Source: Clostridia bacterium (GTDB lineage: Bacteria; Bacillota; Clostridia; Oscillospirales; Acutalibacteraceae). Taken from it: a stretch of 64,000 nt of DNA. The position numbers and the translations under genes were made by a program. How positions within the stretch are numbered: position 1 is the first letter of the stretch; each line of letters opens with the position of its first letter. Where the stretch lies: positions 9,661-73,660 of the forward strand of contig JAKSQJ010000002.1 of the NCBI GenBank assembly GCA_024404195.1, written 5' to 3'. Shown piece by piece: positions 4,310 to 18,849 of the stretch. The notes below the pieces were generated by a model, which made no database searches, was not told where the DNA came from, and saw nothing but the letters and a program-made list of their open reading frames with translations.

Positions 4310-4590
4310 AATAATAAATGCGATGAAGATATTAAGCTTTGCTTTTATTGCTTTTCAGAGAGTCGGCGGCAGGTGAAAGCCGATAGGTCAGAAGCAAGGC
4401 ATCTCACATCTGAGCAGGAAGCCGGAAATTTAAGTATGGCTTTCCGGGTGAGCCCGTAACAGCTCGGGAGCTTGTTTGAGCTTCTTTGAGAGGTTGACAC
4501 CGTGCAACAATGTGGGTGGTACCGTGGTTAATTTTTTGTTAATCATCCCGCAGAAAGTTTAGGACTTTCTGCGGATTTTTCTTTTTTCGG
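4310..4590 (+). promoter_or_regulatory. T-box riboswitch leader 1, specifier CUC (Leu)
   Basis: The K-turn is UGC-GAU-GA ... GA-GCA. The AG bulge is AGAGAG and the distal loop is GGUGAAA. The specifier loop reads CUC-A (4403-4406), followed by CAUCU-GA-GCA. The T-box sequence AAUGUGGGUGGUACCGUGG lies at 4508-4526. The terminator CCGCAGAAAGU/ACUUUCUGCGG plus a U-run lies at 4547-4587. Confidence 0.85.
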
Positions 4591-4600
4591 AGGTATTGTT

Positions 4601-5983
4601 ATGAGAAAAATTAAGATTATTGACTATTCCTTAAAAGCGCTTAGCGACAAAAACTTGCTATTCAGGGAAAAGACGGCTATTGCCGAAAATGTGGATAATT
4701 TCGGGGTTGACGCAATAGAGCTTCCCGCCGCTCAAAACATCAAGGAAGATGCCATAATTTACGGAACAATATCCTCGGTTGCTCAAAACAGTGAAATTTG
4801 TCTTCCCGTCGGCTTTGACGAGGAGAAAATCGGCGAGGTTTTTGAGTGCATAAAGAGTGCCAAAAAGCCCTGCCTTCAGGTTGCGGTCCCCGTTTCAACA
4901 ACGACCATGGAATATACCTATCACTATAAAGCCGATAAAATGCTCAAAAAGGTTGACTCCCTTGTTAAAGCGGCAAAAAAATACTGCAAAAATATAGAAT
5001 TTGTCGCAATGGATGCAACAAGAGCCGACAAAGAATATCTTACCGAAATAATAAACACCGCAAAAAACGCAGGTGCAACGGCTGCAACCGTTTGCGACGA
5101 TGCGGGAATTATGACCCCCGAAGCTTTCGGTAATTTAATAAAAACTCTTACCGAAAAATGCGACCTGCCGATATATGTTAAGGTGTCAAACGAGCTTAAT
5201 ATGGCGGTGGCATGCGCTTACTATGCCGTTCTTTGCGGTGCGAGTGGAATAAAGGCGTCCGTTTCGGGCGAAAATGAGCTGAAAACCGCCGATATCGCCG
5301 CCGTTTTGGAGGCGCAAAAGGATGCTCTTCAAATATCCTTTAATCTTAAAACAACACAGCTTAAAAACGATATCGGTAAGCTTAAAAAGGTTGTTAAAAA
5401 AGTCCCCGAAACGAGCGAAACAAGCGCTTCGGACGACGGGCTTTTAATCAGTGCCGAAAGCACGCTTGCCGACATTGAAAAGGCGGCAAAAGCATTGGGT
5501 TATGAGCTTTCGGGCGAGGACATCGGAAAGGTTTATAAATCCCTTGTTCCTTTGTTTGAAAAAAGAACAGGTGTCGGAACAAAAGAGCTTGAAGCAATAA
5601 TAGCCATCGTGGCAAATGAGGCGCCCTCAACCTACCATCTTGACACATATAATATAAATATAAGCAATGTTTCGTCGTCTATGGCAAATGTTGTGCTTAA
5701 AAAGGACGATACTTTACTTGCCGGAATTGCAACGGGCGACGGCCCTATTGATGCCGCTTTCTTGGCTATTGAGCAGGGAACGGGACTTCATTATGAGCTT
5801 GACGGCCTTGAAATTTCGGCAGTTACCGAGGGTAAAGAGGCATTGGGCTCCGCCGTTGTCCGCCTTCGCAGCGAGGGTGTTCTCTATTCGGGAACGGGAC
5901 TTTCTTCCGATATTGTCGGAGCAAGTATAAGAGCATATATCAACGCCCTTAACAAAATCGTATATGAGGAGGGACTTGCTTGA
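4601..5983 (+). CDS. LeuA/HMGL-family protein with degenerate catalytic motifs but an intact LeuA C-terminal allosteric (dimerisation) domain
   Basis: The 460-aa protein has the overall layout of 2-isopropylmalate/citramalate synthase. DTTLRDGEQ is replaced by DYSLKALSD, and the HxHxD metal motif by VKVSNELNMAV. The C-terminal segment GDGPIDAAFLAIEQ...GTGLSSDIVGASIRAYINALNKI keeps the regulatory-domain pattern. The RBS is GGAGG. Confidence 0.7.
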   Translation: MRKIKIIDYSLKALSDKNLLFREKTAIAENVDNFGVDAIELPAAQNIKEDAIIYGTISSVAQNSEICLPVGFDEEKIGEVFECIKSAKKPCLQVAVPVSTTTMEYTYHYKADKMLKKVDSLVKAAKKYCKNIEFVAMDATRADKEYLTEIINTAKNAGATAATVCDDAGIMTPEAFGNLIKTLTEKCDLPIYVKVSNELNMAVACAYYAVLCGASGIKASVSGENELKTADIAAVLEAQKDALQISFNLKTTQLKNDIGKLKKVVKKVPETSETSASDDGLLISAESTLADIEKAAKALGYELSGEDIGKVYKSLVPLFEKRTGVGTKELEAIIAIVANEAPSTYHLDTYNINISNVSSSMANVVLKKDDTLLAGIATGDGPIDAAFLAIEQGTGLHYELDGLEISAVTEGKEALGSAVVRLRSEGVLYSGTGLSSDIVGASIRAYINALNKIVYEEGLA

Positions 5984-8427
5984 AGATAGTATTCTCAACA
6001 AAAGACCATAACGAAAAGTCCTTTGTAGAGCTTTGTAATTTTACAAAATCCTATAACTGCGCCGGTTTTGAGATTTTTGACGCAAAGAGTGAACAAAAAT
6101 ATCACAGCGACAGTATTTTCAGAAATAATCTTGTAAATGCAGGTAAAAGAAAGCTCTATAACAGAGGAATTTCCATTTCGGCGATTTCCTTTCCCTATGC
6201 GGTTGAAAGGGACGATGTTACCGCCGACCAGATATTGAGTTATGTTGATTTTGCCGTTGTTTCGGGTTGCGAAAATGTTATTCTTTTTATAGAAAATGAG
6301 CCCGATATTGAAAAGTTGACGGAAAAACTCGCTTTGGCGGTAAAAAAGGCGGAGGATAACGATATTTCCGTTCTTTTTGAAACAAAAAATTACCTTTCAA
6401 ATTCAAAAAACATCCTTAAAATAATAAACCATATTTCAAGCGCCGCTTTGGGTGCCGCCTGGAATATAAGAGAAACATATTTTGAGGCAAAAGAAACCGC
6501 CGACGAAACGATAGGAATTTTAGGCGCTTATATAAAATATGTGCGTTTAGGTGACCGAAAAGACGGCGTAAATACCCTTATAGGTCAGGGAAAATTACCG
6601 TTTGACGAGTTTTTGGATGCTTTGGCTTCGCTTAATTACGATTCTTTCGTTTGCGCTCTTTGGAATGACGAAATTACTGATGCGGATATTGTTATAACGC
6701 ATTTTGTAAACTTTATTTCCAGTGTTAAAGACGAGCGGAAAAATGCTAAAAAACTCTATTATAACCGTGATAAAAGCGGAACATTTCCGTATAAAAAATA
6801 TACCGTTGTAGATAAAACTTTTCCCCAAGTTCTTGATGATATGGTGGAATGTTATCCCGACCAATATGCCTTTAAGTATTCAACCCTCCAATATAAGAGG
6901 ACTTACAGCGAATTTCGTAAAGATGTTGATAAGGTTGCGGCGGCGCTTATTTCAATAGGTGTAAAGCCGGGGCATCATGTTGCGGTTTGGGCAACCAATG
7001 TTCCCGAATGGTTTTTAACCTTCTGGGCGGCAACAAAAATCGGCGCCGTTTTGGTTACCGTTAATACCGCTTATCGCATAAACGAGATTGAATATCTTTT
7101 GAGGCAGTCGGATACCCATACCCTTGTTATGATAGAAAACTGCAAGGATATTAACTACGGCGAAATAATAAGTGAGCTTTGCCCCGAGCTTAAAACCCTT
7201 AAAGCCGGTGAGCATTTATACAGTAAAAAACTGCCCTTCCTTAAAAATGTCATTACCGTCGGCTTTGATATGGCAGGTTGCCTTAATTGGAACAAGTTTT
7301 TGCTTCGTGCCGACAGTATTCCAAAAGCGGAGGTAAACAGGCGTGCCGCTATGGTTAAGCCCGACGATGTTGCGAATATGCAATATACATCGGGAACAAC
7401 CGGCTTCCCGAAGGGCGTTATGCTTACCCACCGAAACATTATAAATAACGGCAAGATAATAGGCGACCGTATGGACCTTTCAACCGCCGAGCGCATGATG
7501 ATTCAGGTGCCGATGTTCCATTGCTTCGGAATGGTGCTTTCAATGACATCAATGATGACTCACGGCGGAACATTATCACCGCTCCCCTATTTTTCGCCGA
7601 AGTCATCTCTTGCTTGCATAAACGCCGAAAAGATTACCTGCTTTAACGGTGTTCCAACTATGTTTATTGCGATGTTCTCTCACGAGGACTTCAAAAAAAC
7701 CGATTTTTCATATATGAGAACGGGTATTATGGCAGGGTCTAACTGCCCTCCCGAGCTTATGAAAAAGGCGGCAAAGGAAATGAATATGCGAGAAATCCTT
7801 TCGGTTTACGGTCAAACCGAGGCGTCCCCCGGTTGCACTATGGGCGAGGTAAACGAGGATTTGGAGCATAGAACAGAAACCGTCGGAAGTGCTTTTCCGC
7901 TTATTGAATGCAAAATCATTGACCCCGAAACGGGCGAGGATTTGCCGAACGGTCAAAGCGGCGAATTTGTTGTCCGTGGCTTTAATGTTATGAAGGGCTA
8001 TTATAAAATGCCCGCCGCAACAAAACAGGCGATTGATAAGGAAGGTTGGCTCCATTCGGGCGACCTTTGTATGAAAACCGAGGACGGCTATTATAAGGTA
8101 ACGGGCCGTCTTAAGGATATGATTATCCGAGGCGGAGAAAACATCTATCCCCGTGAAATTGAGGAATTTTATTTAACCCATGAAAAGATAAGGGATGTTC
8201 AGGTTGTCGGCGTTAAGGACGAAAGATACGGCGAAGAAGCATGTGCATTCATTATATTAAAGGAAAACGAAACCTCAACCGAAGCCGAAATGCGAGAGTT
8301 CGGTATGAAGCATATAGCAGGTCATAAGGTCCCCCGATATTTTGTATTTACCGATAGTTTCCCGATGAACGCCGCAGGAAAAATCTTAAAATACAAAATG
8401 AAGGAAGATTTTGAGAAAAATCTTTAA
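5980..8427 (+). CDS. Fusion protein: xylose-isomerase-like TIM-barrel domain + AMP-forming acyl-CoA ligase (FadD-like)
   Basis: An 815-aa ORF. Its TTG start overlaps the upstream stop (TTGA) and has a GAGGAGG RBS. The N-terminal ~245 aa resemble sugar-phosphate isomerase/epimerase TIM barrels. The C-terminal part has AMP-binding motifs YTSGTTGFPKGVMLTH, YGQTE, SGDLCMKTEDGYYKVTGRLKD and a terminal AAGKILK. Confidence 0.8.
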   Translation: MKIVFSTKDHNEKSFVELCNFTKSYNCAGFEIFDAKSEQKYHSDSIFRNNLVNAGKRKLYNRGISISAISFPYAVERDDVTADQILSYVDFAVVSGCENVILFIENEPDIEKLTEKLALAVKKAEDNDISVLFETKNYLSNSKNILKIINHISSAALGAAWNIRETYFEAKETADETIGILGAYIKYVRLGDRKDGVNTLIGQGKLPFDEFLDALASLNYDSFVCALWNDEITDADIVITHFVNFISSVKDERKNAKKLYYNRDKSGTFPYKKYTVVDKTFPQVLDDMVECYPDQYAFKYSTLQYKRTYSEFRKDVDKVAAALISIGVKPGHHVAVWATNVPEWFLTFWAATKIGAVLVTVNTAYRINEIEYLLRQSDTHTLVMIENCKDINYGEIISELCPELKTLKAGEHLYSKKLPFLKNVITVGFDMAGCLNWNKFLLRADSIPKAEVNRRAAMVKPDDVANMQYTSGTTGFPKGVMLTHRNIINNGKIIGDRMDLSTAERMMIQVPMFHCFGMVLSMTSMMTHGGTLSPLPYFSPKSSLACINAEKITCFNGVPTMFIAMFSHEDFKKTDFSYMRTGIMAGSNCPPELMKKAAKEMNMREILSVYGQTEASPGCTMGEVNEDLEHRTETVGSAFPLIECKIIDPETGEDLPNGQSGEFVVRGFNVMKGYYKMPAATKQAIDKEGWLHSGDLCMKTEDGYYKVTGRLKDMIIRGGENIYPREIEEFYLTHEKIRDVQVVGVKDERYGEEACAFIILKENETSTEAEMREFGMKHIAGHKVPRYFVFTDSFPMNAAGKILKYKMKEDFEKNL

Positions 8428-8437
8428 AAATTACCAC

Positions 8438-8466
8438 TTGACAAGTATTGTTTCGTGTGATACAAT
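8438..8466 (+). promoter_or_regulatory. SigmaA-type promoter P2 (TTGACA-17-TACAAT)
   Basis: TTGACA at 8438-8443, a 17-nt spacer, and TACAAT at 8461-8466. It begins 10 nt after the stop of the upstream ligase. Confidence 0.6.
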
Positions 8467-8472
8467 TTATCA

Positions 8473-8752
8473 GTAAATTGAATACCTATCAAACAAAAGC
8501 TATGATGAAGACGGAAAATTTATTGTAAAGCTTTTAGAGAGTCGGGGACGGTGGAAGCCCGACAGCCGGATATTTTTTCTTATCACTTCTGAGCCGAAAG
8601 GACGAAACAGCAGTAGTTCTTTCCGTGTGGGCTACGTTAACGCATACGACTTGTTAGAGTCTGAGGGGCACAGTTTTGTGCAATTTGAGTGGTAACGCGG
8701 GTTTAATTTTTAACTCGTCTCAAGGTTTCTTGGGACGGGTTTTATTTATTTT
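8473..8752 (+). promoter_or_regulatory. T-box riboswitch leader 2, specifier AUC (Ile)
   Basis: The AG bulge is AGAGAG and the distal loop is GGUGGAA. The specifier loop reads AUC-A (8582-8585), followed by CUUCU-GA-GC. The T-box sequence CAAUUUGAGUGGUAACGCGG lies at 8681-8700. The terminator CGUCUCAAG/CUUGGGACG plus a U-rich tail lies at 8714-8752. Confidence 0.85.
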
Positions 8753-8764
8753 CGGAGGTAATTT

Positions 8765-11032
8765 ATGAGCACACAAAATCCCATGTCGCAACTTTTGGAT
8801 ATTGCTTTTCGTATTAGAGAAATGCGAGAAATTATGGGTTATTCCGTCGCCGAAATGGCGGAAAAAACCGAGGTTTCCGTTGAGCAATACGAAAATTACG
8901 AAAACTGCAAAACCGATTTGCCTTTTACATTTGTTCATAAATGCGCACTTGTTTTCGGAATTGAGCTTACCGAACTTTTAGAGGGCAGAAGCGCCAAGCT
9001 TTCTTCCTATACCGTAACAAGAAAGGGCAACGGTCAGCAAACCGCCAAGGAAGACGGTATTGATATTGCAAACTTAGCACCCGAATTCAGAAATAAAATA
9101 GCCGAGCCATACTGGGTTAAGTATGATTATTCCGAGGAGCTTCAAAATAAGCCCATTCATTTAACTAACCACAGCGGTCAGGAATTTGACCTTGTTGTTT
9201 CGGGCTCTTTGATGGTGCAGGTAGGCACAAATACCGAAATTCTTAACGAGGGCGACAGTATTTACTATAATTCTTCAACACCTCACGGTATGATAGCCGT
9301 CGGCGGAAAGGATTGCGAATTTTTGGCAGTTGTTCTTCCGGGCGAGGACGAGCAGGAGGAAACTATCCGCACAAGTATTGCCGCCGCAAAACCCTCTAAA
9401 AAGTTGCTTTGCGAAAAATTCGTTAAGACAACCGAGGACGAAAACGGCGCTTTGCAGGATATTAAATTCGTTGATACCGATAAGTTTAATTTCGGCTTTG
9501 ATGTTGTTAATGCTATCGCAAATAAATACCCCGATAAGCTTGCGATGGTGCATATTGACAGAAACAAGAGGGAAAGACAGTTTACCTTTGACGATATAAA
9601 GAGAGAGTCGGCAAGATGCGCTAACTATTTTACAACTATGGGCATCAAAAAGGGCGACAAAGTAATGCTTGTTCTCAAAAGGCATTATCAGTTCTGGTTT
9701 GCTATGGTAGCACTTCATAAAATCGGCGCCGTCGCAATTCCCGCAACATTCTTACTTAAAGAGCACGATTTTGAGTATAGATTTAATGCCGCCGAAATTT
9801 CGGCTATTGTCTGCACTGCCGACGGCGATGTTGCCGAAATTGCCGAAAAAGCCGCAAAAAAATGCAAAACCGTTAAAACCAAAATCATGGTTGGCGGAAA
9901 TAGAGACGGTTGGCACGATTTTGATAATGAATATAAGGTTTATTCAAGCCATTTCCGCAGAAGTGCCGATACTCCCTGCGGTGATGACCCTGCAATCATC
10001 TTCTTCTCCTCGGGAACAACGGGCGAGCCAAAAATGGTTGAACATTCTCATACCTATCCGTTAGGTCATTTCGTAACCGCTAAATATTGGCATTGTTGCG
10101 AAAGGGACGGTCTTCACTTCACCATTTCCGACACCGGTTGGGGTAAATCCCTTTGGGGAAAACTTTACGGACAGTGGCTTTGCGAGGGTGCCGTATTTGT
10201 TTATGACTTTGACCGCTTTGACGCTTCTGATATTTTGCCGATGTTCAAAAAGTATAATGTTACAACATTCTGCGCTCCCCCTACCATGCTTCGTATGATG
10301 GTAAAAGAAGACCTTACAAAATATGATTTTTCGTCTGTTAAGCATATGACAACCGCAGGCGAGGCGCTTAATCCCGAGGTTGCAAAGCAGTTTAAGGAAG
10401 CAACCGGACTTACGATTTATGAGGGCTTCGGTCAAACCGAAACCACCCTTACGGTTGCAAATCTTGGCGGAACAAGGACAAAAATCGGCTCAATGGGCAA
10501 ACCTTCTCCGCAATATGAAATTGACATTGTTGACCATGACGATAAGCCGGTCGCAAACGGCGAAACGGGCGAAATCGTTATAAAACTTCAAAACGGCAAC
10601 CCCGTCGGTCTTTTCAGACAATACCTAAAAGAGCCCGAAAAAACCAAAGAGGTAAGAAGAAACAACCTTTATCATACGGGCGATACCGCTTGGCGAGATG
10701 AATCGGGATATTTTTGGTATGTCGGCAGGGTTGACGATATTATTAAATCGTCAGGTTACCGTATAGGGCCGTTTGAAATTGAAAATGTTATTATGGAGCT
10801 TCCGTATGTTCTTGAATGCGGTGTTTCCGCCGAGCCCGACGAAATAAGGGGTCAGATTGTTAAGGCAAGTATCGTTTTAACAAAGGGAACAAAGCCGAGC
10901 GAAGAACTCAAAAAGGAAATCCAGAATTATGTTAAGAGCCATACTGCTCCTTATAAATATCCCCGTCTTGTTGTGTTTAAGGACGAGCTTCCGAAAACCA
11001 ATAACGGAAAAATAATGCGCAGTTTACTGTAA
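8765..11032 (+). CDS. Fusion protein: XRE-family HTH + cupin domain + medium-chain (ACSM/MacS-like) AMP-forming acyl-CoA synthetase
   Basis: A 755-aa ORF. The N-terminus (IREMREIMGYSVAEMAEKTEVSVEQYENYE) is HTH_3-like. The cupin core is HSGQEFDLVVSGSLMVQVG...GDSIYYNSSTPHGM. The synthetase part has FFSSGTTGEPKMVEHSH, EGFGQTET, YHTGDTAWRDESGYFWYVGRVDD and a terminal NNGKIMR. Confidence 0.85.
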   Translation: MSTQNPMSQLLDIAFRIREMREIMGYSVAEMAEKTEVSVEQYENYENCKTDLPFTFVHKCALVFGIELTELLEGRSAKLSSYTVTRKGNGQQTAKEDGIDIANLAPEFRNKIAEPYWVKYDYSEELQNKPIHLTNHSGQEFDLVVSGSLMVQVGTNTEILNEGDSIYYNSSTPHGMIAVGGKDCEFLAVVLPGEDEQEETIRTSIAAAKPSKKLLCEKFVKTTEDENGALQDIKFVDTDKFNFGFDVVNAIANKYPDKLAMVHIDRNKRERQFTFDDIKRESARCANYFTTMGIKKGDKVMLVLKRHYQFWFAMVALHKIGAVAIPATFLLKEHDFEYRFNAAEISAIVCTADGDVAEIAEKAAKKCKTVKTKIMVGGNRDGWHDFDNEYKVYSSHFRRSADTPCGDDPAIIFFSSGTTGEPKMVEHSHTYPLGHFVTAKYWHCCERDGLHFTISDTGWGKSLWGKLYGQWLCEGAVFVYDFDRFDASDILPMFKKYNVTTFCAPPTMLRMMVKEDLTKYDFSSVKHMTTAGEALNPEVAKQFKEATGLTIYEGFGQTETTLTVANLGGTRTKIGSMGKPSPQYEIDIVDHDDKPVANGETGEIVIKLQNGNPVGLFRQYLKEPEKTKEVRRNNLYHTGDTAWRDESGYFWYVGRVDDIIKSSGYRIGPFEIENVIMELPYVLECGVSAEPDEIRGQIVKASIVLTKGTKPSEELKKEIQNYVKSHTAPYKYPRLVVFKDELPKTNNGKIMRSLL

Positions 11033-11039
11033 AAAACTG

Positions 11040-11068
11040 TTGACAAATAGGAATTCTTGTATTATACT
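11040..11068 (+). promoter_or_regulatory. SigmaA-type promoter P3 (TTGACA-17-TATACT)
   Basis: TTGACA at 11040-11045, a 17-nt spacer, and TATACT at 11063-11068. It begins 7 nt after the upstream stop codon. Confidence 0.6.
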
Positions 11069-11074
11069 TTGAGA

Positions 11075-11356
11075 ATAAAGGCAAAGACGAAGAGGACTTT
11101 ATTATTCCGAAATTTAGAGAGATAACGGTTGGTGAAAGTTATCGGTAGGGTAATTTGGTTGTAACTTCTGAGCTGAAGGGAAGAAAGCATTTTTGCAAGT
11201 AGAGCCCTTTCGTGTAGGCTGCGTTAATGCATACGGCTTGTTAGAGCCTGAGTGGCACTTTTTTGTGCAATTTGAGTGGTACCGCGGGTGTATTTTGATA
11301 TTTTTTACGCTCGTCTCAAAGTATTAAGCTTTGGGACGGGTGTTTTTTCGTTTTTT
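11075..11356 (+). promoter_or_regulatory. T-box riboswitch leader 3, specifier GUA (Val)
   Basis: The AG bulge is AGAGAG and the distal loop is GGUGAAA. The stem AGAGG/CUUCU closes the specifier loop, which reads GUA-A (11161-11164), followed by CUUCU-GA-GC. The T-box sequence CAAUUUGAGUGGUACCGCGGG lies at 11268-11287. The terminator CGUCUCAAAG/CUUUGGGACG plus a U-run ends near 11356. The 3' half is clearly paralogous to leader 2. Confidence 0.85.
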
Positions 11357-11378: not shown

Positions 11379-13667
11379 ATGCAAGAAATAAGCAATCTTG
11401 ATTATAAAATCAAGGAAATGGCGGGGCGTATTAAAGAGCTTCGTGAAATTGAGGGCGTTTCTCCCGAAGAAATGGCTCAAAAAACCGATGTTTCCGTCAG
11501 TGAATACCTTTCCTGCGAAAGCGGAGAAAGCGACTTAAACTTTGCATTTCTTTACCGTTGCGCATTGGCGCTTAATGTCAATGTTACCGATATAATTGAG
11601 GGTCACAGTCCTACCCTTAAGGCATTTACCGTTACAAAAAAAGGCAAGGGTCAGGAAATTGCGAATGCTCACGGTATGACATATTACAATATGGCTTATG
11701 CTTTCAAAAACAGAATTGCCGAGCCGCTTTATGTTAAATCAAATTACGACGAATCAGCCCAAACGAAAGAAATTGAGCTTACAACCCATGAGGGACAGGA
11801 GCTTGATATTATAATTTCTGGTCAGCTTCGTGTTCAGATAGGTGAGCATAGCGAGGTTTTAAGCGAGGGCGACAGTGTTTACTTTAATTCCTCAACCCCC
11901 CACGGTATGATAGCCGTCGGCGGTAAGGACTGCGAGTTTTATGCCATTGTCCTTAATCCTACGGGGGAACCCATTCCCGAGCTTATTCCGACAAAGGCGA
12001 TTGAGTTTGAAAAGGAAGTAAAGCAGGATACAAGCGACAGAGTTTACCGCAAGTATGTTGATATCGTTAAAAACGATAAGGGAACACCTACATCAATTAA
12101 ATTTAAGAACACAGATAAGTTTAACTTTGCCTTTGATGTTGTTGACGAAATGGCAAACAAAAACCCGAATAAACTCGCCATGCTTCATATTGACCGCAAC
12201 GAAACAGAGAGAAGATTTACCTTCCTTGATATGAAGAAAGAGTCGGCAAGATGCGCAAACTATTTCAGTTCTTTGGGAATTAAAAAGGGCGACAGAGTTA
12301 TGCTTGTTTTAAGGCGTAATTATCAGTTTTGGCCCATAATGTTAGGCCTTAATAAGTTGGGCGCTATTGCAATTCCCGCAACAAGCCAACTTCTTCCGCA
12401 TGACCTTGAATACAGATTTGATAAGGCGGGAGTTACCTCTATTGTCTGCACTTCGGACGATAATTCCCCCGATTCCGCCGACACTGCCGCCGCTACATAC
12501 GGTAAAATGAAAAACAAGATTATCGTAGGCGGTAAAAGAGACGGTTGGAGAGAATTTGATAAAGAATATAAGCGCTTCAGCTCAACCTATGAGCGAACAA
12601 AGGATTCTCCCTGCGGCGATGACCTTCTTCTTATGTTCTTTACTTCGGGAACTTCGGGTTATCCGAAAATTGCCGCTCATAACCATAAATATCCTTTCGG
12701 ACATTTTGTTACGGCTAAATATTGGCATTGCTGCGACCCCGACGGACTTCATTTTACAATTTCCGATACGGGCTGGGCTAAGGCAATGTGGGGCAAGCTT
12801 TACGGTCAGTGGTTCTGCGAAGCCGCAACCTTTGTTTATGACTTTGACCGTTTTGATGCATCAAAGATAATGCCGATGTTCGCAAAGCATAAAATAACAA
12901 CCTTTTGCGCTCCGCCTACTATGCTTCGTATGATGATAAAGCAGGATTTATCAAATTATGATTTTTCGTCCGTTAAGCATATGACAACCGCAGGCGAGGC
13001 ACTTAACCCCGAGGTTTATAAGCAATTTAAGAATTTGACGGGACTTCATATTATTGAGGGCTTCGGTCAAAGCGAATCTACCATGATGATAGGCAATCTT
13101 CGTGGCGCTCCGCATAAAATCGGCTCAATGGGTAAACCCTGCCCGATTTATGATATTGACCTTTTGGACAGCGACGGTAACCCCGTTGCCATCGGTGAAA
13201 CGGGCGAAATTTGCGTAAATGTTAAAAACGGTGCGCCCTGCGGACTGTTTACCGGTTACTATAACGACCCCGAAAAGACCGACGAGGCAATTCACGACGG
13301 TTATTACCATACCGGCGATACCGCTTGGAAGGACGAGGACGGTTTCTATTGGTTTGTCGGCAGAGTTGACGATGTTATTAAATCATCGGGCTACCGTATA
13401 GGACCCTTTGAAATAGAAAGCGTTATTATGGAGCTTCCCTATGTTCTTGAATGCGGCGTTTCCCCCGAGCCCGATGAAATAAGGGGACAAATTGTTAAAG
13501 CAAGTATTGTTTTAACAAAGGGAACTAAGCCGACCGAGGAACTTAAAAAAGAAATCCAAAACTATGTTAAACAGCATACCGCTCCTTATAAATACCCCCG
13601 TCTTGTTGTGTTCAGAGATGAACTTCCGAAAACAACAAGCGGTAAGATAATGCGAAATAAGCTTTAA
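11379..13667 (+). CDS. Fusion protein: XRE-family HTH + cupin domain + medium-chain AMP-forming acyl-CoA synthetase (paralog of 8765..11032)
   Basis: I prefer the ATG at 11379 (RBS AGGAGG) over the TTG at 11331, which lies inside the T-box terminator. The domain order matches the upstream paralog and the C-terminal ~90 aa are nearly identical. Motifs present are FFTSGTSGYPKIAAHNH, EGFGQSES and YHTGDTAWKDEDGFYWFVGRVDD. Confidence 0.85.
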   Translation: MQEISNLDYKIKEMAGRIKELREIEGVSPEEMAQKTDVSVSEYLSCESGESDLNFAFLYRCALALNVNVTDIIEGHSPTLKAFTVTKKGKGQEIANAHGMTYYNMAYAFKNRIAEPLYVKSNYDESAQTKEIELTTHEGQELDIIISGQLRVQIGEHSEVLSEGDSVYFNSSTPHGMIAVGGKDCEFYAIVLNPTGEPIPELIPTKAIEFEKEVKQDTSDRVYRKYVDIVKNDKGTPTSIKFKNTDKFNFAFDVVDEMANKNPNKLAMLHIDRNETERRFTFLDMKKESARCANYFSSLGIKKGDRVMLVLRRNYQFWPIMLGLNKLGAIAIPATSQLLPHDLEYRFDKAGVTSIVCTSDDNSPDSADTAAATYGKMKNKIIVGGKRDGWREFDKEYKRFSSTYERTKDSPCGDDLLLMFFTSGTSGYPKIAAHNHKYPFGHFVTAKYWHCCDPDGLHFTISDTGWAKAMWGKLYGQWFCEAATFVYDFDRFDASKIMPMFAKHKITTFCAPPTMLRMMIKQDLSNYDFSSVKHMTTAGEALNPEVYKQFKNLTGLHIIEGFGQSESTMMIGNLRGAPHKIGSMGKPCPIYDIDLLDSDGNPVAIGETGEICVNVKNGAPCGLFTGYYNDPEKTDEAIHDGYYHTGDTAWKDEDGFYWFVGRVDDVIKSSGYRIGPFEIESVIMELPYVLECGVSPEPDEIRGQIVKASIVLTKGTKPTEELKKEIQNYVKQHTAPYKYPRLVVFRDELPKTTSGKIMRNKL

Positions 13668-13677
13668 GAGGGCGTTT

Positions 13678-14400
13678 ATGAAAATATCGGTTATTCAAAT
13701 GGATGTTAAGCTTAATGCTCCCGATATTAACTTTAATAAGGCGAAAAAACTTATCAAAGAAGCGGTAAGTGAGGACCCCGATGTAATCGTTTTGCCCGAA
13801 ACCTTTAATGTCGGCTTTTTTCCGAAGGATATAAAAAGGGAATTTTGCGATATTGACGGAAAAAGGGTAAAAGAAGAAATCGGAAAACTTGCAAAAGAGT
13901 ATAATGTTAATATCGTTGCCGGCTCTGTTGCGAACATAAAAAACGGTAATCTTTATAATACCGCCTATGTTTTTTCAAGGTCGGGCGAGCAAATAGCCGA
14001 ATACGATAAAATCAATTTGTTTTCGGCTATGGACGAGGATAAATACTTTAATAAGGGCGATAAAACCGTTCGTTTTTATCTTGACGGGCATCCCTGCACA
14101 CTTATTATTTGCTATGATATCCGCTTCCCCGAAATTATAAGAAAAGCAACGGCAAATGAGCCGACTGACCTTTTGTTTATCTTATCCGAATGGCCGAAAG
14201 TCAGAATAAACGAACTAACCGCTCTTGTTACCGAAAGGGCAACGGAAAACAGAATGTTTGCCGTTTGCTCAAACTCCTGCGGAAAGGCAAACGATGTAAA
14301 ATATGGCGGAAATTCGGTTATTGTTGACCCGCTCGGCAATATTCTCATAAAAGCAGAAGAAACCGAAAGCATCATAACCGCAAACTGCGATATACAATAA
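13678..14400 (+). CDS. Carbon-nitrogen hydrolase (Nit/omega-amidase, YafV/MtnU-like)
   Basis: A 240-aa ORF. The E-K-C triad context is visible: VLPETFN, YDKINLF and LIICYDIRFPE. The start lies 10 nt after the upstream stop, so the gene is co-transcribed. Confidence 0.75.
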   Translation: MKISVIQMDVKLNAPDINFNKAKKLIKEAVSEDPDVIVLPETFNVGFFPKDIKREFCDIDGKRVKEEIGKLAKEYNVNIVAGSVANIKNGNLYNTAYVFSRSGEQIAEYDKINLFSAMDEDKYFNKGDKTVRFYLDGHPCTLIICYDIRFPEIIRKATANEPTDLLFILSEWPKVRINELTALVTERATENRMFAVCSNSCGKANDVKYGGNSVIVDPLGNILIKAEETESIITANCDIQ

Positions 14401-14420
14401 ATTTTAAGTAGGAATAAACA

Positions 14421-15092
14421 ATGCGAGATTATAAGCGACTTACAATAATATGCGGACATTACGGAAGCGGTAAAACAAATATCGCCGTAAATATGGCGTT
14501 AGAGCTTTGCAAAATCCGTGAAAATGTTGCCGTTGCCGACCTTGATATTGTTAATCCTTATTTCAGAACAAAGGACAGCGAGGAAGATTTTAAGGCAAAC
14601 GGAATAAAACTTATTTGTTCGCAGTTTGCAAATACAAATCTTGATTTACCGTCGCTTCCTGCCGATTTATATTCAATAACCGATGATAAGGAAACCTCGG
14701 TTATTCTTGATATCGGCGGTGATGACAGGGGTGCTTTTGCTTTGGGCAGATTAAGCCCCGAAATAATCAAAGAAAATAACTATGATATGTATTATGTCAT
14801 CAATAAATACCGTCCCTTAACTCCCGATGCCGAGTCGGCTTATGAGATAATGCTTGAAATTGAAGCGGCTTGCGGAATTAAGTTTACGGGAATTCTCAAC
14901 AACTCAAATTTGGGCTCGCAAACTTCGGCGGAAGATGTTCTTAATTCTTTGGAGTTTGCGGATAGATTATCCGAAATTTCTTCTTTGCCTGTTAAAGCCA
15001 CCTGCATAGAAAAACGGCTTGAAGACGAGCTTAAAGATAAAATTCCAAACTTGTTTTCAATGAAATTGCAAAACAAAATAATAGACGGTTAA
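14421..15092 (+). CDS. P-loop NTPase of unknown function, UreG/HypB (G3E)-like motif pattern
   Basis: A 223-aa ORF with Walker A GHYGSGKTN, a Walker B-like VILDIGGDDRG (compare UreG ESGGDNL) and INKY at the position of NKxD. Confidence 0.5.
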   Translation: MRDYKRLTIICGHYGSGKTNIAVNMALELCKIRENVAVADLDIVNPYFRTKDSEEDFKANGIKLICSQFANTNLDLPSLPADLYSITDDKETSVILDIGGDDRGAFALGRLSPEIIKENNYDMYYVINKYRPLTPDAESAYEIMLEIEAACGIKFTGILNNSNLGSQTSAEDVLNSLEFADRLSEISSLPVKATCIEKRLEDELKDKIPNLFSMKLQNKIIDG

Positions 15093-15184
15093 TAAACCGA
15101 TTATTGTGTTAAAAATTTTGAGGACTTGACAGCGAAATGTTGCCTTAGCTCTTAAAAGTATATAAATTGAAAGGAAAGATGATT

Positions 15185-15391
15185 ATGGCTAAACTTACTT
15201 TTAAAACAGATAATTGTAAGGGCTGCGGACTTTGCGTTGATGCTTGTCCGAAAAATCTGTTGCTTTTGGCGCAGGACAAAATAAACAAAAAGGGACATCA
15301 TCCTGTTGAAATTTCAAATATGGATGAATGCATAGGTTGCGCTTCCTGCGCTGTTATGTGCCCCGACTGTATAATAAAGGTAGAAAGGTGA
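15185..15391 (+). CDS. 2-oxoacid:ferredoxin oxidoreductase delta subunit (2x[4Fe-4S] ferredoxin)
   Basis: Two CxxCxxCxxxCP motifs are present (CKGCGLCVDACP and CIGCASCAVMCP). The start is uncertain: ATG at 15185, 15179, or TTG at 15167. Confidence 0.8.
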   Translation: MAKLTFKTDNCKGCGLCVDACPKNLLLLAQDKINKKGHHPVEISNMDECIGCASCAVMCPDCIIKVER

Positions 15392-15397
15392 TAAATT

Positions 15398-16465
15398 ATG
15401 GCAGACAAGGTTCTTATGAAAGGTAACGAAGCGATAGCCGAAGCCGCTATAATCGCCGGTTGCCGTCACTATTTCGGATATCCGATTACACCGCAAACCG
15501 AGGTTGCCGCATATATGGCAAAGAAGATGCCGAAAATCGGCGGAACATTTTTGCAGGCAGAAAGCGAAATTGCGGCTATCAGTATGGTTTACGGCGTATC
15601 CTCGGCAGGATACAGAGTTATGACCTCTTCTTCATCCCCCGGAATATCCTTAAAGCAAGAGGGAATATCCTATCTTGCTGGTTCCGACCTTCCGGCACTT
15701 ATTGTTAATGTTCAAAGAGGCGGTCCCGGACTCGGCGGTATTCAACCCTCTCAGTCGGATTATTTTCAGGCAACAAAGGGCGGCGGACACGGCGACTATC
15801 ATTTGATAGTTTTGGCTCCTGCCTCCGTTCAGGAAATGGCAGAGCTAACAATAAAGGGTTTTGACCTTGCCGATAAATACAGAATGCCGACAATGCTCCT
15901 TGCCGACGGCACTATGGGACAAATGATGGAGCCGGTATCTCTTGATGAGTATTCCGACATTAAAACATTTGATAAGCCCTGGGCAACCAACGGAACAAAG
16001 ATGAACAGAGAACATAATATTACAAACTCTTTGTCGCTCGTTCCCGAAGAACTTGAACAGTTGAATATAGCAAGATATGAGCGTTATAAAATTGTTGAAG
16101 AAAACGAAACCATGTATGAAGAATACTATATGGATGATGCCGAAATCTGCATTGCGGCTTTCGGTATTGCGGCAAGAGTTTCGCTCCATGCAGTAGAAAA
16201 GGCAAGAAAAGAAGGCATAAAGGTCGGTATGATAAGACCTATAACTCTTTGGCCGTTCCCGAGCGCACCGTTCAAAAAAGCGGCTCCGCATCTTAAACAC
16301 ATTATGTCGGTAGAGCTTTCTATGGGACAGATGATAGAGGATGTTAAACTCGCTTGTGAATGTTGTTGCCCTGTAACCCTTTGCAACCGTGTCGGCGGTA
16401 TGATTCCCGACCCGTTGCAGGTTCTTGAAAGAATTAAAGAAGTCAATAAGGAGGTAAACGGATAA
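15398..16465 (+). CDS. 2-oxoacid:ferredoxin oxidoreductase alpha subunit (VorB/KorA type)
   Basis: A 355-aa ORF. The N-terminus MKGNEAIAEAAIIAGCRHYFGYPITPQTE is typical of OFOR alpha subunits. The gene is followed by coupled beta and gamma genes. Confidence 0.85.
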   Translation: MADKVLMKGNEAIAEAAIIAGCRHYFGYPITPQTEVAAYMAKKMPKIGGTFLQAESEIAAISMVYGVSSAGYRVMTSSSSPGISLKQEGISYLAGSDLPALIVNVQRGGPGLGGIQPSQSDYFQATKGGGHGDYHLIVLAPASVQEMAELTIKGFDLADKYRMPTMLLADGTMGQMMEPVSLDEYSDIKTFDKPWATNGTKMNREHNITNSLSLVPEELEQLNIARYERYKIVEENETMYEEYYMDDAEICIAAFGIAARVSLHAVEKARKEGIKVGMIRPITLWPFPSAPFKKAAPHLKHIMSVELSMGQMIEDVKLACECCCPVTLCNRVGGMIPDPLQVLERIKEVNKEVNG

Positions 16466-17229
16466 TGGTAGTATTTGAAAAACCGCACGCACTAATTGAT
16501 GTGCCGCTTCATTATTGTCCGGGTTGTACTCACGGTATAGTGCATAGATTGGTAGCCGAAGTAATAGACGAATTAGGCATTGAAGGTCAAACCATAGGTA
16601 TAGCACCTGTTGGCTGTTCCGTTATGGCTTATAATTATTTTAATTGCGATATGATAGAGGCGGCTCACGGCAGAGCACCGGCAGTTGCTACCGGCGTTAA
16701 GCGAGCAGACCCCGATAACAATATCGTATTCACCTATCAGGGTGACGGCGACTTGGCATCCATCGGAACTGCCGAAACAGTTCACGCCGCCGCAAGAAAC
16801 GAAAATATAACCATAATCTTTATAAATAACGCAATTTACGGTATGACCGGCGGTCAAATGGCTCCTACCTCGCTTCCCGGTCAGATAACCCAGACCTCTC
16901 CCTACGGCAGAGACCCGAAGCTTTGCGGTTATCCGATTAAGGTTTGCGAAATGCTTTCCGAACTTGACGGCCCCGAATATTTAGAGCGTGTTGCCGTAAA
17001 TAATGTTAAGAATGTAAGAAATGCCAAAAAAGCCATTAAAAAGGCGTTCCAAAATCAGATAGATAAAAAGGGATTTTCTCTTGTAGAGGTTATTTCAACC
17101 TGCCCGACCAACTGGGGACTTACTCCTAAAAAGGCTCTTGAATGGGTTGACGAAAAGATGATTCCGTATTATCCGCTCGGCGTTTATAAGGATAGAAGCG
17201 CCGCACAGGACGAAAAGGAGGAAGGTTAA
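16465..17229 (+). CDS. 2-oxoacid:ferredoxin oxidoreductase beta subunit (TPP-binding)
   Basis: A 254-aa ORF with YCPGCTHG and the GDGD...NNxxYGMTGGQ TPP-binding motif. It has a TAATG overlap with the alpha gene. Confidence 0.85.
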   Translation: MVVFEKPHALIDVPLHYCPGCTHGIVHRLVAEVIDELGIEGQTIGIAPVGCSVMAYNYFNCDMIEAAHGRAPAVATGVKRADPDNNIVFTYQGDGDLASIGTAETVHAAARNENITIIFINNAIYGMTGGQMAPTSLPGQITQTSPYGRDPKLCGYPIKVCEMLSELDGPEYLERVAVNNVKNVRNAKKAIKKAFQNQIDKKGFSLVEVISTCPTNWGLTPKKALEWVDEKMIPYYPLGVYKDRSAAQDEKEEG

Positions 17230-17766
17230 ATGACTTCGCAGTTTTTGTTTTCCGGTTTCGGCGGACAGGGTATCTTGTTCGCAGGTAAATTTATGTCATA
17301 TAAGGGTATGACAGACGGTAAAAATGTATCATGGCTTCCCTCTTACGGCCCCGAAATGAGAGGCGGTACCGCAAGTTGCAGCGTTGTTGTCAGAGATAAG
17401 CCTATCGGCTCGCCGATAGTTGCTTTCCCCGATACTCTTATTGCTATGAATCTTCCGTCGCTTGATAAGTTTGAAGATTCAGTTCAGGAGGGCGGAACAA
17501 TATTTATTGATTCAACCCTTGTTGAAAGAAAGGTAAAGAGGGATGATGTAAATGTTTATTACATCCCTGCTACCAAGCTTGCAAACGATAATGGTATGCC
17601 TACTCTTGCAAATATGATTATCGTAGGCAAAATTCTTAAAGTCAGAAACGAATTTAACGAGGAAAGCATTAAAGCGGCTCTCGGAAAGGTTGTTTCCGCA
17701 AAGCATGCAGATTTATTTGATGTAAACCTTAAAGCATTACAAATCGGCGCTTCTTATGAGGGCTGA
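17230..17766 (+). CDS. 2-oxoacid:ferredoxin oxidoreductase gamma subunit
   Basis: A 178-aa [15 protein letters not shown] near the N-terminus is typical of OFOR gamma subunits. The start directly abuts the beta stop. Confidence 0.85.
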
Positions 17767-17787
17767 TACTGAAAGGAAGAGTTTTTT

Positions 17788-18849
17788 ATGGAAATTAAAA
17801 TTATCAAAAAGCAAAATCCTACCTTAAAGCCGGGCGAAGAATACGGCTTCGGACGAGTATTTACCGACCATATGTTTGTTATGGATTATGACAGCGAAAA
17901 CGGTTGGCATGATGCCCGTATAGTTCCGTTTGACAGAATTTCAATCCATCCTGCATCAACCGTTCTTCACTACGGCGCAGAAATATTTGAGGGACTTAAA
18001 GCATATAGGCGTGCCGACGGCGGCGTTCAGCTTTTCAGACCTATTGAAAATATCCGCCGTATGAACAACTCGGCCGAGCGTCTTTGCTTACCGCAGATTG
18101 ACGAAGATATGGCTATGGATATCCTTACAACCTTTATTTCTCACGAAAAAGAGTGGACTCCGTCCGACCCCGGCACTACACTTTACATCCGTCCGTTTAT
18201 GTATGGTAACGATGAACAGCTCGGTGTTCATGCCGTAAAGCATGCAACCTTTATGATAATCGCATCACCTACCGGAAGCTACTATAAGCAGGGCTTCCAG
18301 CCGGTTCGCATTATGATAGAAGATACCGATGTCCGAGCAGTTCGCGGCGGAACAGGTTATGCTAAATGCGGCGGTAACTATGCCGCAAGCACCCGTGCAG
18401 GCGAAAAGGCAGAACAGCAGGGCTATTCTCAGGTTCTTTGGCTTGACGGTGTTGAACATAAGTATGTTGAAGAAGTAGGCGCTATGAATGTTATGTTCAA
18501 GATTAACGGCGAGATAGTAACTCCGGCGCTTACCGGTTCTATTCTTCCGGGTGTTACAAGAAAGTCATGCGTTGAGGCTCTTAAGAAAGAGGGTTACACC
18601 GTAAACGAGCGCCTTTTGAGCATTGACGAGTTAGCAGAAGCTATGAAAAACGGCACCTTAGAGGAAGCTTGGGGTTGCGGAACTGCCGCAGTTATTTCAC
18701 CGATTGGCGAGCTTTGCTATAAGGGTGTTAAATATGCAATTAACGACGGTAAGATAGGTCCTGTTACCCAGCACCTTTACGATAAGCTTACCGGTATTCA
18801 GTGGGGCAGAGTTGAGGACGAGTTCGGTTGGACTTATCCGATTGACTGA
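17788..18849 (+). CDS. ilvE: Branched-chain amino acid aminotransferase
   Basis: A 353-aa fold-type IV aminotransferase. Motifs seen are EGLKAYR, TGYAKCGGNYAAS, EEVGAMNVMF and LPGVTRKS. Confidence 0.85.
   Translation: MEIKIIKKQNPTLKPGEEYGFGRVFTDHMFVMDYDSENGWHDARIVPFDRISIHPASTVLHYGAEIFEGLKAYRRADGGVQLFRPIENIRRMNNSAERLCLPQIDEDMAMDILTTFISHEKEWTPSDPGTTLYIRPFMYGNDEQLGVHAVKHATFMIIASPTGSYYKQGFQPVRIMIEDTDVRAVRGGTGYAKCGGNYAASTRAGEKAEQQGYSQVLWLDGVEHKYVEEVGAMNVMFKINGEIVTPALTGSILPGVTRKSCVEALKKEGYTVNERLLSIDELAEAMKNGTLEEAWGCGTAAVISPIGELCYKGVKYAINDGKIGPVTQHLYDKLTGIQWGRVEDEFGWTYPID

Follow-up and report, generated by a model that had tools for sequence, protein, structure and literature searches.

The window analysed here, the whole 64,000-nucleotide stretch at positions 9,661 to 73,660 of contig JAKSQJ010000002.1 (assembly GCA_024404195.1) from a Clostridia bacterium of the Acutalibacteraceae, contains two neighbouring genes on the forward strand, paralog 1 and paralog 2, each of which encodes an acyl-CoA synthetase with an XRE-type helix-turn-helix (HTH) and a cupin domain, together referred to as the module, at its N-terminus. 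The original prediction had recognised this fusion and offered two explanations for it, namely that the enzyme also binds DNA or that adenylation is controlled by a pathway metabolite bound to the cupin. Here, we describe the two genes and their relatives in other genomes, argue that the module most likely no longer reads DNA, and tentatively suggest that it is a ligand sensor acting on the ligase. The genes and their control regions are arranged as follows.

8438..8466, + strand: promoter of paralog 1, sigma-70-type (TTGACA, 17 nt, TG-n-TACAAT; 11 of 12 matches, extended -10)
8493..8741, + strand: T-box leader of paralog 1, Ile specifier AUC at 8582-8584, terminator at 8712-8741
8765..11032, + strand: paralog 1, HTH-cupin-acyl-CoA synthetase (Ile-type), ATG start, 755 amino acids, Shine-Dalgarno sequence GGAGG upstream
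8780..8992, + strand: alpha-domain of paralog 1, residues 6-76, five-helix and XRE-like, net charge -5 (AlphaFold2, predicted local distance difference test (pLDDT) score 84-98)
8999..9340, + strand: lead-in beta-strands and cupin barrel of paralog 1, residues 79-192 (Cupin_2; pLDDT 85-98 in the module-only AlphaFold2 model)
9170-9172, 9182-9184 and 9284-9286, + strand: codons of the putative metal triad of paralog 1, His136, Glu140 and His174 (invariance in family alignments)
9341..9439, + strand: linker of paralog 1, residues 193-225, poorly conserved, with residues 193-209 predicted to be disordered
9440..11029, + strand: synthetase of paralog 1, residues 226-755 (Pfam, match to PDB 3ETC, motifs)
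11040..11068, + strand: promoter of paralog 2 (TTGACA, 17 nt, TATACT)
11075..11343, + strand: T-box leader of paralog 2, Val specifier GUA at 11161-11163, terminator at 11307-11343
11379..13667, + strand: paralog 2, HTH-cupin-acyl-CoA synthetase (Val-type), 762 amino acids (Pfam and translation)
11379-11978, + strand: N-terminal module of paralog 2, residues 1-200
12075-13664, + strand: synthetase of paralog 2, residues ~233-762

In both paralogs, Pfam places HTH_3/HTH_19, Cupin_2, AMP-binding and AMP-binding_C in this order and all above their gathering scores. Specifically, the HTH match covers residues ~14-75 (E 1.5e-8 in paralog 1 and 4e-6 in paralog 2), Cupin_2 covers residues ~130-190 (E 4e-12 and 6e-13), AMP-binding scores 235.5 and 204.1 bits versus a cutoff of 29.9 (E 1e-69 and 4e-60), and AMP-binding_C scores 74.2 and 74.4 bits versus a cutoff of 24.5 (E 1.5e-20). 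The open reading frames (ORFs) and this domain order thus confirm the predicted N-terminal fusion in both paralogs. The ORF of paralog 2 is open from a TTG at 11331; because AGGAGG precedes the ATG at 11379, and because this ATG lies past the leader terminator, we placed the start at 11379. Neither translation has a Met near the domain junction and no obvious internal ATG restart was found, with alternative start codons lying outside this check. Identity between the two paralogs is 41% in the HTH and 56% in the cupin, and reaches 66-80% in the synthetase.

To our scan of species-representative genomes, seeded by an alignment of eight module sequences, at least 581 relatives responded, and in the best 80 loci, which we inspected, the module is on the synthetase ORF in all cases, barring contig-end cuts or apparent frameshifts. 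The same architecture is found in at least 120 protein clusters that share 74-100% identity and in 119 further ones of the second type. With more than 230 clusters, the architecture is widespread and, as the original prediction held, the fusion is no assembly accident. An exhaustive search with the module alone returned 2,211 relatives. Those above ~44% identity are fusions or fragments of fusions, while at 33-43% identity (up to 45% among the stand-alones) there is a large set of proteins of ~185-195 residues that match the module end-to-end. When the stand-alone proteins were used to seed a metagenome scan, ~53 of the 80 loci obtained were stand-alone and ~26 fused. The stand-alone HTH-cupin gene almost always lies immediately upstream, on the same strand, of an unfused ligase of the same family (~550 residues), with a stop/start overlap (-4 or -1) or a spacing of 9-56 nt, and where such a split pair has a T-box, the T-box is located 5' of the module gene. 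Split pairs are also present in the cultured species Clostridium thermosuccinogenes and Pseudobacteroides cellulosolvens. A minority of stand-alone modules lie beside genes that, judged by eye, encode IF-3, an rRNA methylase, a GH31 protein or an ABC transporter, and these neighbours provide no functional lead. On a rough neighbour-joining tree without support values, fused and split forms interchange at least six times. Because the module has been fused repeatedly, and is otherwise translationally coupled, to the same enzyme, we suggest that module and ligase are physical partners.

The synthetase half matches PDB 3ETC, the structure of MacsMa from Methanosarcina acetivorans, over 525 aligned residues (E 1.4e-186). 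The preferred substrate of MacsMa is 2-methylbutyrate, and MbcS of S. aureus activates branched short acids. The best NCBIfam model is that of the branched-chain enzyme MbcS (NF047394), with 449.7 and 443.7 bits for paralogs 1 and 2; because ~450 bits is well short of the equivalog cutoff of 850, the synthetases in the window are relatives of MbcS rather than orthologs. All ANL core motifs are present: SSGTTGEPK (A3), YHTGD (A7), GRVDD (A8) and PKTNNGK (A10, with the catalytic Lys) in paralog 1, and TSGTSGYPK, YHTGD, GRVDD and PKTTSGK in paralog 2. Judged by these motifs and matches, both catalytic halves are complete AMP-forming, MacsMa-like acyl-CoA synthetases. MacsMa and MbcS themselves have 525-580 residues and no N-terminal module. 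In one homologous cluster, from an Eubacteriales metagenome-assembled genome (MAG; locus L018, 11639-13399), the slot of the second paralog is occupied by a 586-residue ligase without HTH-cupin while the first paralog keeps its module. Because MacsMa and MbcS work without a module and this paralog has none, the module is an accessory and not part of the catalytic core.

The T-box control with which the original prediction had associated the fusion genes was recovered: the leader of paralog 1 scores 102.6 bits with Rfam RF00230 (gathering score 93), and that of paralog 2 scores 86.8 bits, slightly below the gathering score, with E 2e-18 and a full-length match. With a Leu leader further upstream, the window has three promoter/T-box units with three specifiers (Leu, Ile and Val), each gating a different ligase; their T-boxes lie at 4314-4553, 8493-8725 and 11075-11321. 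Specifiers were read from the cmscan alignment and with a structure-anchored script that was validated on these three leaders and is specific but insensitive, finding leaders for ~45% of the genes of the paralog 1 type and for fewer of the paralog 2 type. By this script, 42 of the 44 T-boxes detected before fusions of the paralog 1 type in other species have the Ile specifier AUC, 12 of 13 leaders detected before the paralog 2 type are Val, and all four detected before LeuA-like genes are Leu. Thus, the Leu/Ile/Val division of labour among the ligases is conserved across species. The layout of the promoter of paralog 1 is likewise kept in 57 homologous promoters.

Because of the Ile and Val specifiers and the content of the gene cluster, we infer that paralog 1 is a 2-methylbutyrate-CoA ligase and paralog 2 an isobutyrate-CoA ligase. 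Based on the established chemistry of the enzyme families present, a branched acid would be converted to the acyl-CoA, the acyl-CoA to the 2-oxoacid by reductive carboxylation through the ferredoxin-dependent 2-oxoacid:ferredoxin oxidoreductase (VOR), and the 2-oxoacid to the amino acid by an aminotransferase. Paralog 1 would then feed isoleucine synthesis from 2-methylbutyrate and paralog 2 valine synthesis from isobutyrate. It has been known for decades that anaerobes of the rumen and gut use reductive carboxylation to make isoleucine from 2-methylbutyrate, valine from isobutyrate and leucine from isovalerate. In contrast to MacsMa and MbcS, the ligases in the window would therefore supply amino-acid synthesis via VOR rather than fatty-acid priming.

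We next consider the module itself. An AlphaFold2 model of the module alone, built from a diverse alignment (pLDDT 90), has five helices within residues 6-73 (6-24, 28-34, 39-46, 54-64 and 68-73 in paralog 1), lead-in strands at 91-120 and a cupin barrel at 139-191. In the full-length model (predicted TM-score (pTM) 0.64), residues 193-209 of the linker have pLDDT below 50 and the ligase begins at about residue 215; the linker also has the lowest within-group conservation (0.65/0.57). In alignments of 35 and 46 sequences, His136, Glu140, His174, Gly138, Gln139, Asp164, Ser165, Glu114 and Phe108 are invariant in fused and stand-alone members, as is the structural pair Arg21/Glu46, and the cupin is conserved as strongly as the enzyme (0.86 versus 0.84). 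Because the metal triad and the polar residues near it are invariant and the conservation equals that of the enzyme, we think it more likely that the cupin has a functional pocket than that it is a scaffold.

Among solved structures, the module profile finds the uncharacterised protein 1Y9Q (E 2e-10) in two pieces and HppE end-to-end (E 3e-6; module residues 9-182 versus HppE residues 12-196), with His138, Glu142 and His180 of HppE aligned to His136, Glu140 and His174 of the module. Foldseek ranks HppE first (E 2e-13), followed by 1Y9Q, HEPD, MPnS and Psf4. By profile and fold comparison, HppE-type enzymes are the sole functionally characterised end-to-end structural relatives of the module, sharing with it an alpha-domain, a cupin and the 2-His-1-Glu triad residue-for-residue. 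The XRE-like alpha-domain of these enzymes is not known to bind DNA. The similarity is nevertheless distant, with 18-19% identity, a TM-score of about 0.5 and a different domain orientation, and the module is paired with an acyl-CoA ligase; moreover, HppE-type enzymes act in phosphonate biosynthesis and depend on an oxidant, whereas the context in the window is branched-chain amino-acid assimilation with a ferredoxin-dependent VOR. No curated NCBIfam model claims the module: the PuuR model (NF007408) gives 20.1, 19.1 and 34.5 bits versus a cutoff of 211, the last for the stand-alone protein P0397 of C. thermosuccinogenes.

The first explanation in the original prediction was a trigger enzyme. 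In such a reading, a dimer of the XRE HTH would bind DNA, the cupin or the synthetase would sense substrate, and the fusion would control its own or other genes. The XRE fold has all five helices, predicted with confidence, and retains the Arg21-Glu46 pair, and P0397 aligns end-to-end with the PuuR model, albeit with only 34.5 bits. Metabolic enzymes and regulator-type domains or functions do occur on one polypeptide: BirA, PutA and NadR are trigger enzymes, and BirA is an adenylate-forming enzyme with an N-terminal HTH. The acyl-CoA ligase FadD1 of P. aeruginosa, which lacks an HTH or cupin module, is reported to bind promoters as a regulator (PMC12754631). The XRE-cupin proteins that have been studied in Pseudomonas repress enzyme genes next to their own and act as dimers on palindromes (PMC7901475), and the stand-alone relatives of the module also adjoin an enzyme gene, that of the synthetase. 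PuuR, PsdR, PauR and ErfA further resemble the module in placing an XRE HTH before a cupin that has a His/Glu/His pattern, and they match its stand-alone versions in size (~185 residues) and in genetic linkage to an enzyme gene.

However, while DNA binding has been demonstrated for BirA, PutA, NadR and FadD1, every computable proxy points against it for the fusions in the window. The net charge of the HTH core is -5 in paralog 1 and -7 in paralog 2, and among 219 family members it averages -5.4, with 218 between -2 and -10; by comparison, it is +1 in PuuR, +4 in 434 repressor, +1 in SinR and on average +2 in six other XRE HTH ORFs from the same loci. The solvent-facing positions of helix 3 have an entropy of 2.0-2.5 bits versus 0.8-1.0 bits in the rest of the HTH (orthologs 75-80% identical) and include the first to the tenth most variable of the 187 module positions, and positions 40 and 41, equivalent to the DNA-contacting Gln29 and Ser30 of 434 repressor, are mostly Glu or Asp. 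Thus, the HTH is acidic here and positively charged in the controls, and its recognition-helix surface is the most variable part of the module. In 57 non-redundant promoters, only the -35 box, the extended -10 box, A-tracts and the T-box start are conserved; no conserved operator was found in them, and their inverted repeats share no arm sequence. Counting inverted repeats with G/C in the arms in promoter cores gave 10, versus 5.2 ± 2.9 expected from dinucleotide shuffles (18 of 200 shuffles reached or exceeded the observed number), and thus no enrichment; an apparent excess in a first count (411 versus 236 ± 24) vanished under this restriction and is attributed to upstream terminators and A/T tracts. 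The sequence AATTGAATA, seen before many Ile leaders, was rejected as an operator, having no fixed distance and merging into the 5' consensus of the T-box. Within the window, no inverted repeat is common to the three promoters. An A/T-rich inverted repeat of 10 nt with 90% complementarity (ATACAATTTA / TAAATTGAAT) lies at 8460-8483 over the -10 box of paralog 1; no counterpart was found at the other two promoters of the window or in other species. Species-specific operators, or sites elsewhere in the genome, may exist for the module.

The genetic arrangement also argues against a repressor. Behind a T-box, one copy of the module is produced for each copy of an abundant metabolic enzyme (1:1), and whether fused or split the module is co-directional with the enzyme and, when split, translationally coupled to it, unlike the characterised XRE-cupin repressors. 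In C. thermosuccinogenes (locus L162, 3840-4733) and P. cellulosolvens (locus L164, 3888-4772), the split pair is immediately preceded by a separate LysR-type gene of the same orientation, which may encode the actual transcriptional regulator of the two genes. We suggest that the module most likely descends from XRE-cupin proteins but reads DNA no longer. Hence, the premise that HTH_3 plus cupin is a repressor architecture fails for this subfamily on sequence grounds, and the idea that the enzyme also binds DNA is disfavoured by the acidic HTH, the variable recognition helix and the missing conserved operator. The databases contain thousands of these proteins, named 'AMP-binding protein', 'cupin domain-containing protein' or 'XRE family transcriptional regulator', and the label 'transcriptional regulator' on the stand-alone version is probably wrong.

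Our preferred reading is the second explanation of the original prediction, with which the evidence is compatible: that the module senses a ligand and regulates the ligase allosterically, providing fast feedback beside the T-box. We give this reading a probability of roughly 0.4. Specifically, the His-Glu-His metal module would work on the synthetase itself, in cis through the flexible linker in the fusions and as a co-translated partner in the split forms. Its ligand would be a small carboxylate from the branch that the enzyme serves (the end-product amino acid or the corresponding 2-oxoacid). The metal and the invariant polar residues would grip the head group, and the side chain would be held by hydrophobic residues specific to the branch. 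The ligand-bound module would then throttle adenylation, adding quick feedback at the level of the enzyme to the slower transcriptional control by the T-box. In line with this, positions that discriminate the Ile-type from the Val-type are 2-4-fold denser in the module (0.08-0.16) than in the ligase (0.035 and 0). The discriminating exchanges include Y116L, W117Y and Y120S on the strand that carries the invariant Glu114 and Val118, and T93I, I99M and I101Y in the 93-101 hairpin, which aligns with the substrate-closing Arg/Tyr hairpin of HppE. A conserved head-group site combined with a branch-specific hydrophobic part is what would be expected for binding of a branched 2-oxoacid, amino acid or acid.

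The module would thereby most likely work like the C-terminal domain of LeuA and the ACT subunits of acetolactate synthase, which are allosteric domains on first enzymes of branched-chain amino-acid synthesis. In those cases as well, a ligand-binding add-on or partner imposes end-product feedback on the first committed step, here an ATP-consuming one, above T-box or attenuation control; the fold in the window differs in being a cupin with a metal site. To our knowledge, no acyl-CoA synthetase is regulated by an appended or partner ligand-binding domain of this kind.

Several points weigh against a branch-specific sensor. The module-enzyme interaction, the identity of the ligand and the inhibitory direction, like everything said here about the function of the module, are inferred from sequence, and the full-length AlphaFold2 model (pTM 0.64) contains no confident module-ligase interface. 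The Ile/Val-specific residues could perhaps reflect drift after duplication, and the charge comparison that argues against DNA binding uses few controls (three known proteins and six ORFs). Split pairs are also found without T-boxes and outside obvious amino-acid contexts, and therefore the common denominator of the module is the synthetase and not branched-chain amino acids; a ligand shared by all synthetases, such as CoA, AMP, PPi or acyl-AMP, would fit equally well or better. Finally, the TIM barrel on the Leu-branch ligase is enzyme-like and not sensor-like, which hints that the N-terminal additions are perhaps catalytic.

Of the alternatives, an architectural role survives best, although we consider it unlikely. 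Here, the module would oligomerise the ligase into dimers or tetramers, or dock VOR for channelling of the acyl-CoA, with a structural metal and no ligand. Oligomerisation of cupins and of HppE is mediated by these domains, a role in packing or solubility would suit an acidic alpha-domain whose core is conserved and whose surface varies, the tether is flexible, and the P-loop and VOR genes are constant neighbours that also lie divergently beside split pairs. On the other hand, an invariant three-residue metal site and about ten invariant polar residues, kept at 33-45% identity, exceed the needs of a scaffold, split pairs are common without VOR nearby, and the variable surface of the alpha-domain speaks against a conserved docking interface.

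It is less probable still that the module is a second catalytic domain, i.e. an HppE-like metallo-cupin enzyme or subunit that carries out a step on the acid, the acyl-adenylate, the thioester or the 2-oxoacid and makes the fusions bifunctional. Such a function is suggested by the end-to-end characterised matches, all of which (HppE, Psf4, HEPD and MPnS) are enzymes whose XRE-like alpha-domains are likewise acidic (about -4), by the exactly aligned triad and the many more invariant polar residues, as in an active site, and by the sister ligase, which is fused to the TIM barrel of an enzyme family in a pair that also occurs split. If correct, hundreds of gut and rumen species would possess an unrecognised reaction coupled to the activation of branched acids, e.g. 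proofreading against incorrect acyl-adenylates or a chemical conversion of the acid or 2-oxoacid, and the TIM barrel of the Leu branch would have an analogous catalytic role. However, the pathway as drawn requires no additional step, homologous ligases work alone, and HppE-type reactions need O2 or H2O2 and phosphonates, to which nothing in the context of these anaerobes points; in addition to the low similarity to HppE, PuuR-like XRE-cupin regulators have the same His/Glu/His pattern, and therefore the triad does not discriminate an enzyme from a regulator. A specific variant in which the cupin is a 2-methylbutyrate racemase or epimerase is rejected because isobutyrate, the presumed substrate of the Val-type, is achiral and the Val-type still retains the module. 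Least probable, on the evidence given above, is the trigger enzyme.

The remaining genes of the cluster, together with the leader of the upstream unit, are as follows.

4314-4553, + strand: Leu T-box leader, specifier CUC, of the upstream unit (LeuA-like gene and third ligase)
4601-5983, + strand: LeuA-like gene (HMGL-like and LeuA_dimer), 460 amino acids, behind the Leu (CUC) T-box
5980-8427, + strand: third ligase with an N-terminal xylose-isomerase-like TIM barrel (AP_endonuc_2, E 3e-12), 815 amino acids
13678-14400, + strand: CN-hydrolase (nitrilase/amidase superfamily), passing no equivalog cutoff
14421-15092, + strand: P-loop protein, 223 amino acids, with weak CbiA/ParA/Mrp-like matches, all below cutoffs
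15167-15391, + strand: VOR delta, 2x[4Fe-4S] ferredoxin, 74 amino acids
15398-16465, + strand: VOR alpha
16465-17229, + strand: VOR beta
17230-17766, + strand: VOR gamma
17788-18849, + strand: class IV (branched-chain) aminotransferase

There is no strong promoter or terminator between the genes downstream of paralog 2 (13678..18849, + strand), suggesting that they are co-transcribed with paralog 2 under its Val T-box, and their order is kept in most of the best 80 loci and thus in dozens of Clostridia from gut and rumen. Both fusion and cluster are also present in MAGs labelled Spirochaetales and Sphaerochaetaceae (loci L019 and L052), with modules 68-69% identical to those of Clostridia, which reflects either horizontal transfer or a binning error. 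In the upstream unit, the genes for the LeuA-like protein and the TIM-barrel ligase are co-transcribed, and the TIM-barrel fusion is kept in 21 loci. Thus, a second and unrelated accessory domain sits on a ligase of the same pathway. It, too, occurs split, at 7371-9872 on the - strand in loci L166/L167, where an AMP-binding gene of 554 codons is followed by an AP_endonuc_2 gene of 267 codons, the reverse of the domain order in the fusion. The LeuA-like gene is always paired with the TIM-barrel ligase fusion and its product scores far below every 2-isopropylmalate synthase equivalog (at best 231 bits versus a cutoff of 532), and it may not be an ordinary LeuA. The CN-hydrolase gene is present in only some homologous clusters, mostly beside the aminotransferase gene; we speculate that it encodes an omega-amidase that pulls glutamine-dependent transamination forward. 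In nearly all loci, also where the pair is split, the P-loop gene directly precedes the VOR genes; its product could help VOR to mature or supply it with Fe-S clusters as a carrier.

In full-text searches of the literature, we found no description of the fusion or the split pair and no gene-level account of the cluster. In the proteins described here, an enzyme family that is already known has acquired an accessory module of regulator ancestry, which is widely conserved and has gone unstudied. The split two-gene version, the HppE-type enzymes as nearest structures and the failure of the repressor premise were not foreseen by the original prediction.

These findings have several implications. 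The cluster is a complete candidate pathway with three ligases separately gated by Ile, Val and Leu T-boxes, VOR and an aminotransferase, and in hundreds of Clostridia, most of them uncultured, ligases of this family are accompanied by an HTH-cupin module in fused or split form. More generally, the combination of an XRE HTH with a cupin need not mean a repressor. If the module were catalytic, a reaction would be missing from the pathway as it is drawn. If it is an allosteric sensor, this would be the first control of this kind on an acyl-CoA synthetase known to us, and would provide a lever on the use of branched-chain fatty acids in ruminant nutrition and gut ecology.

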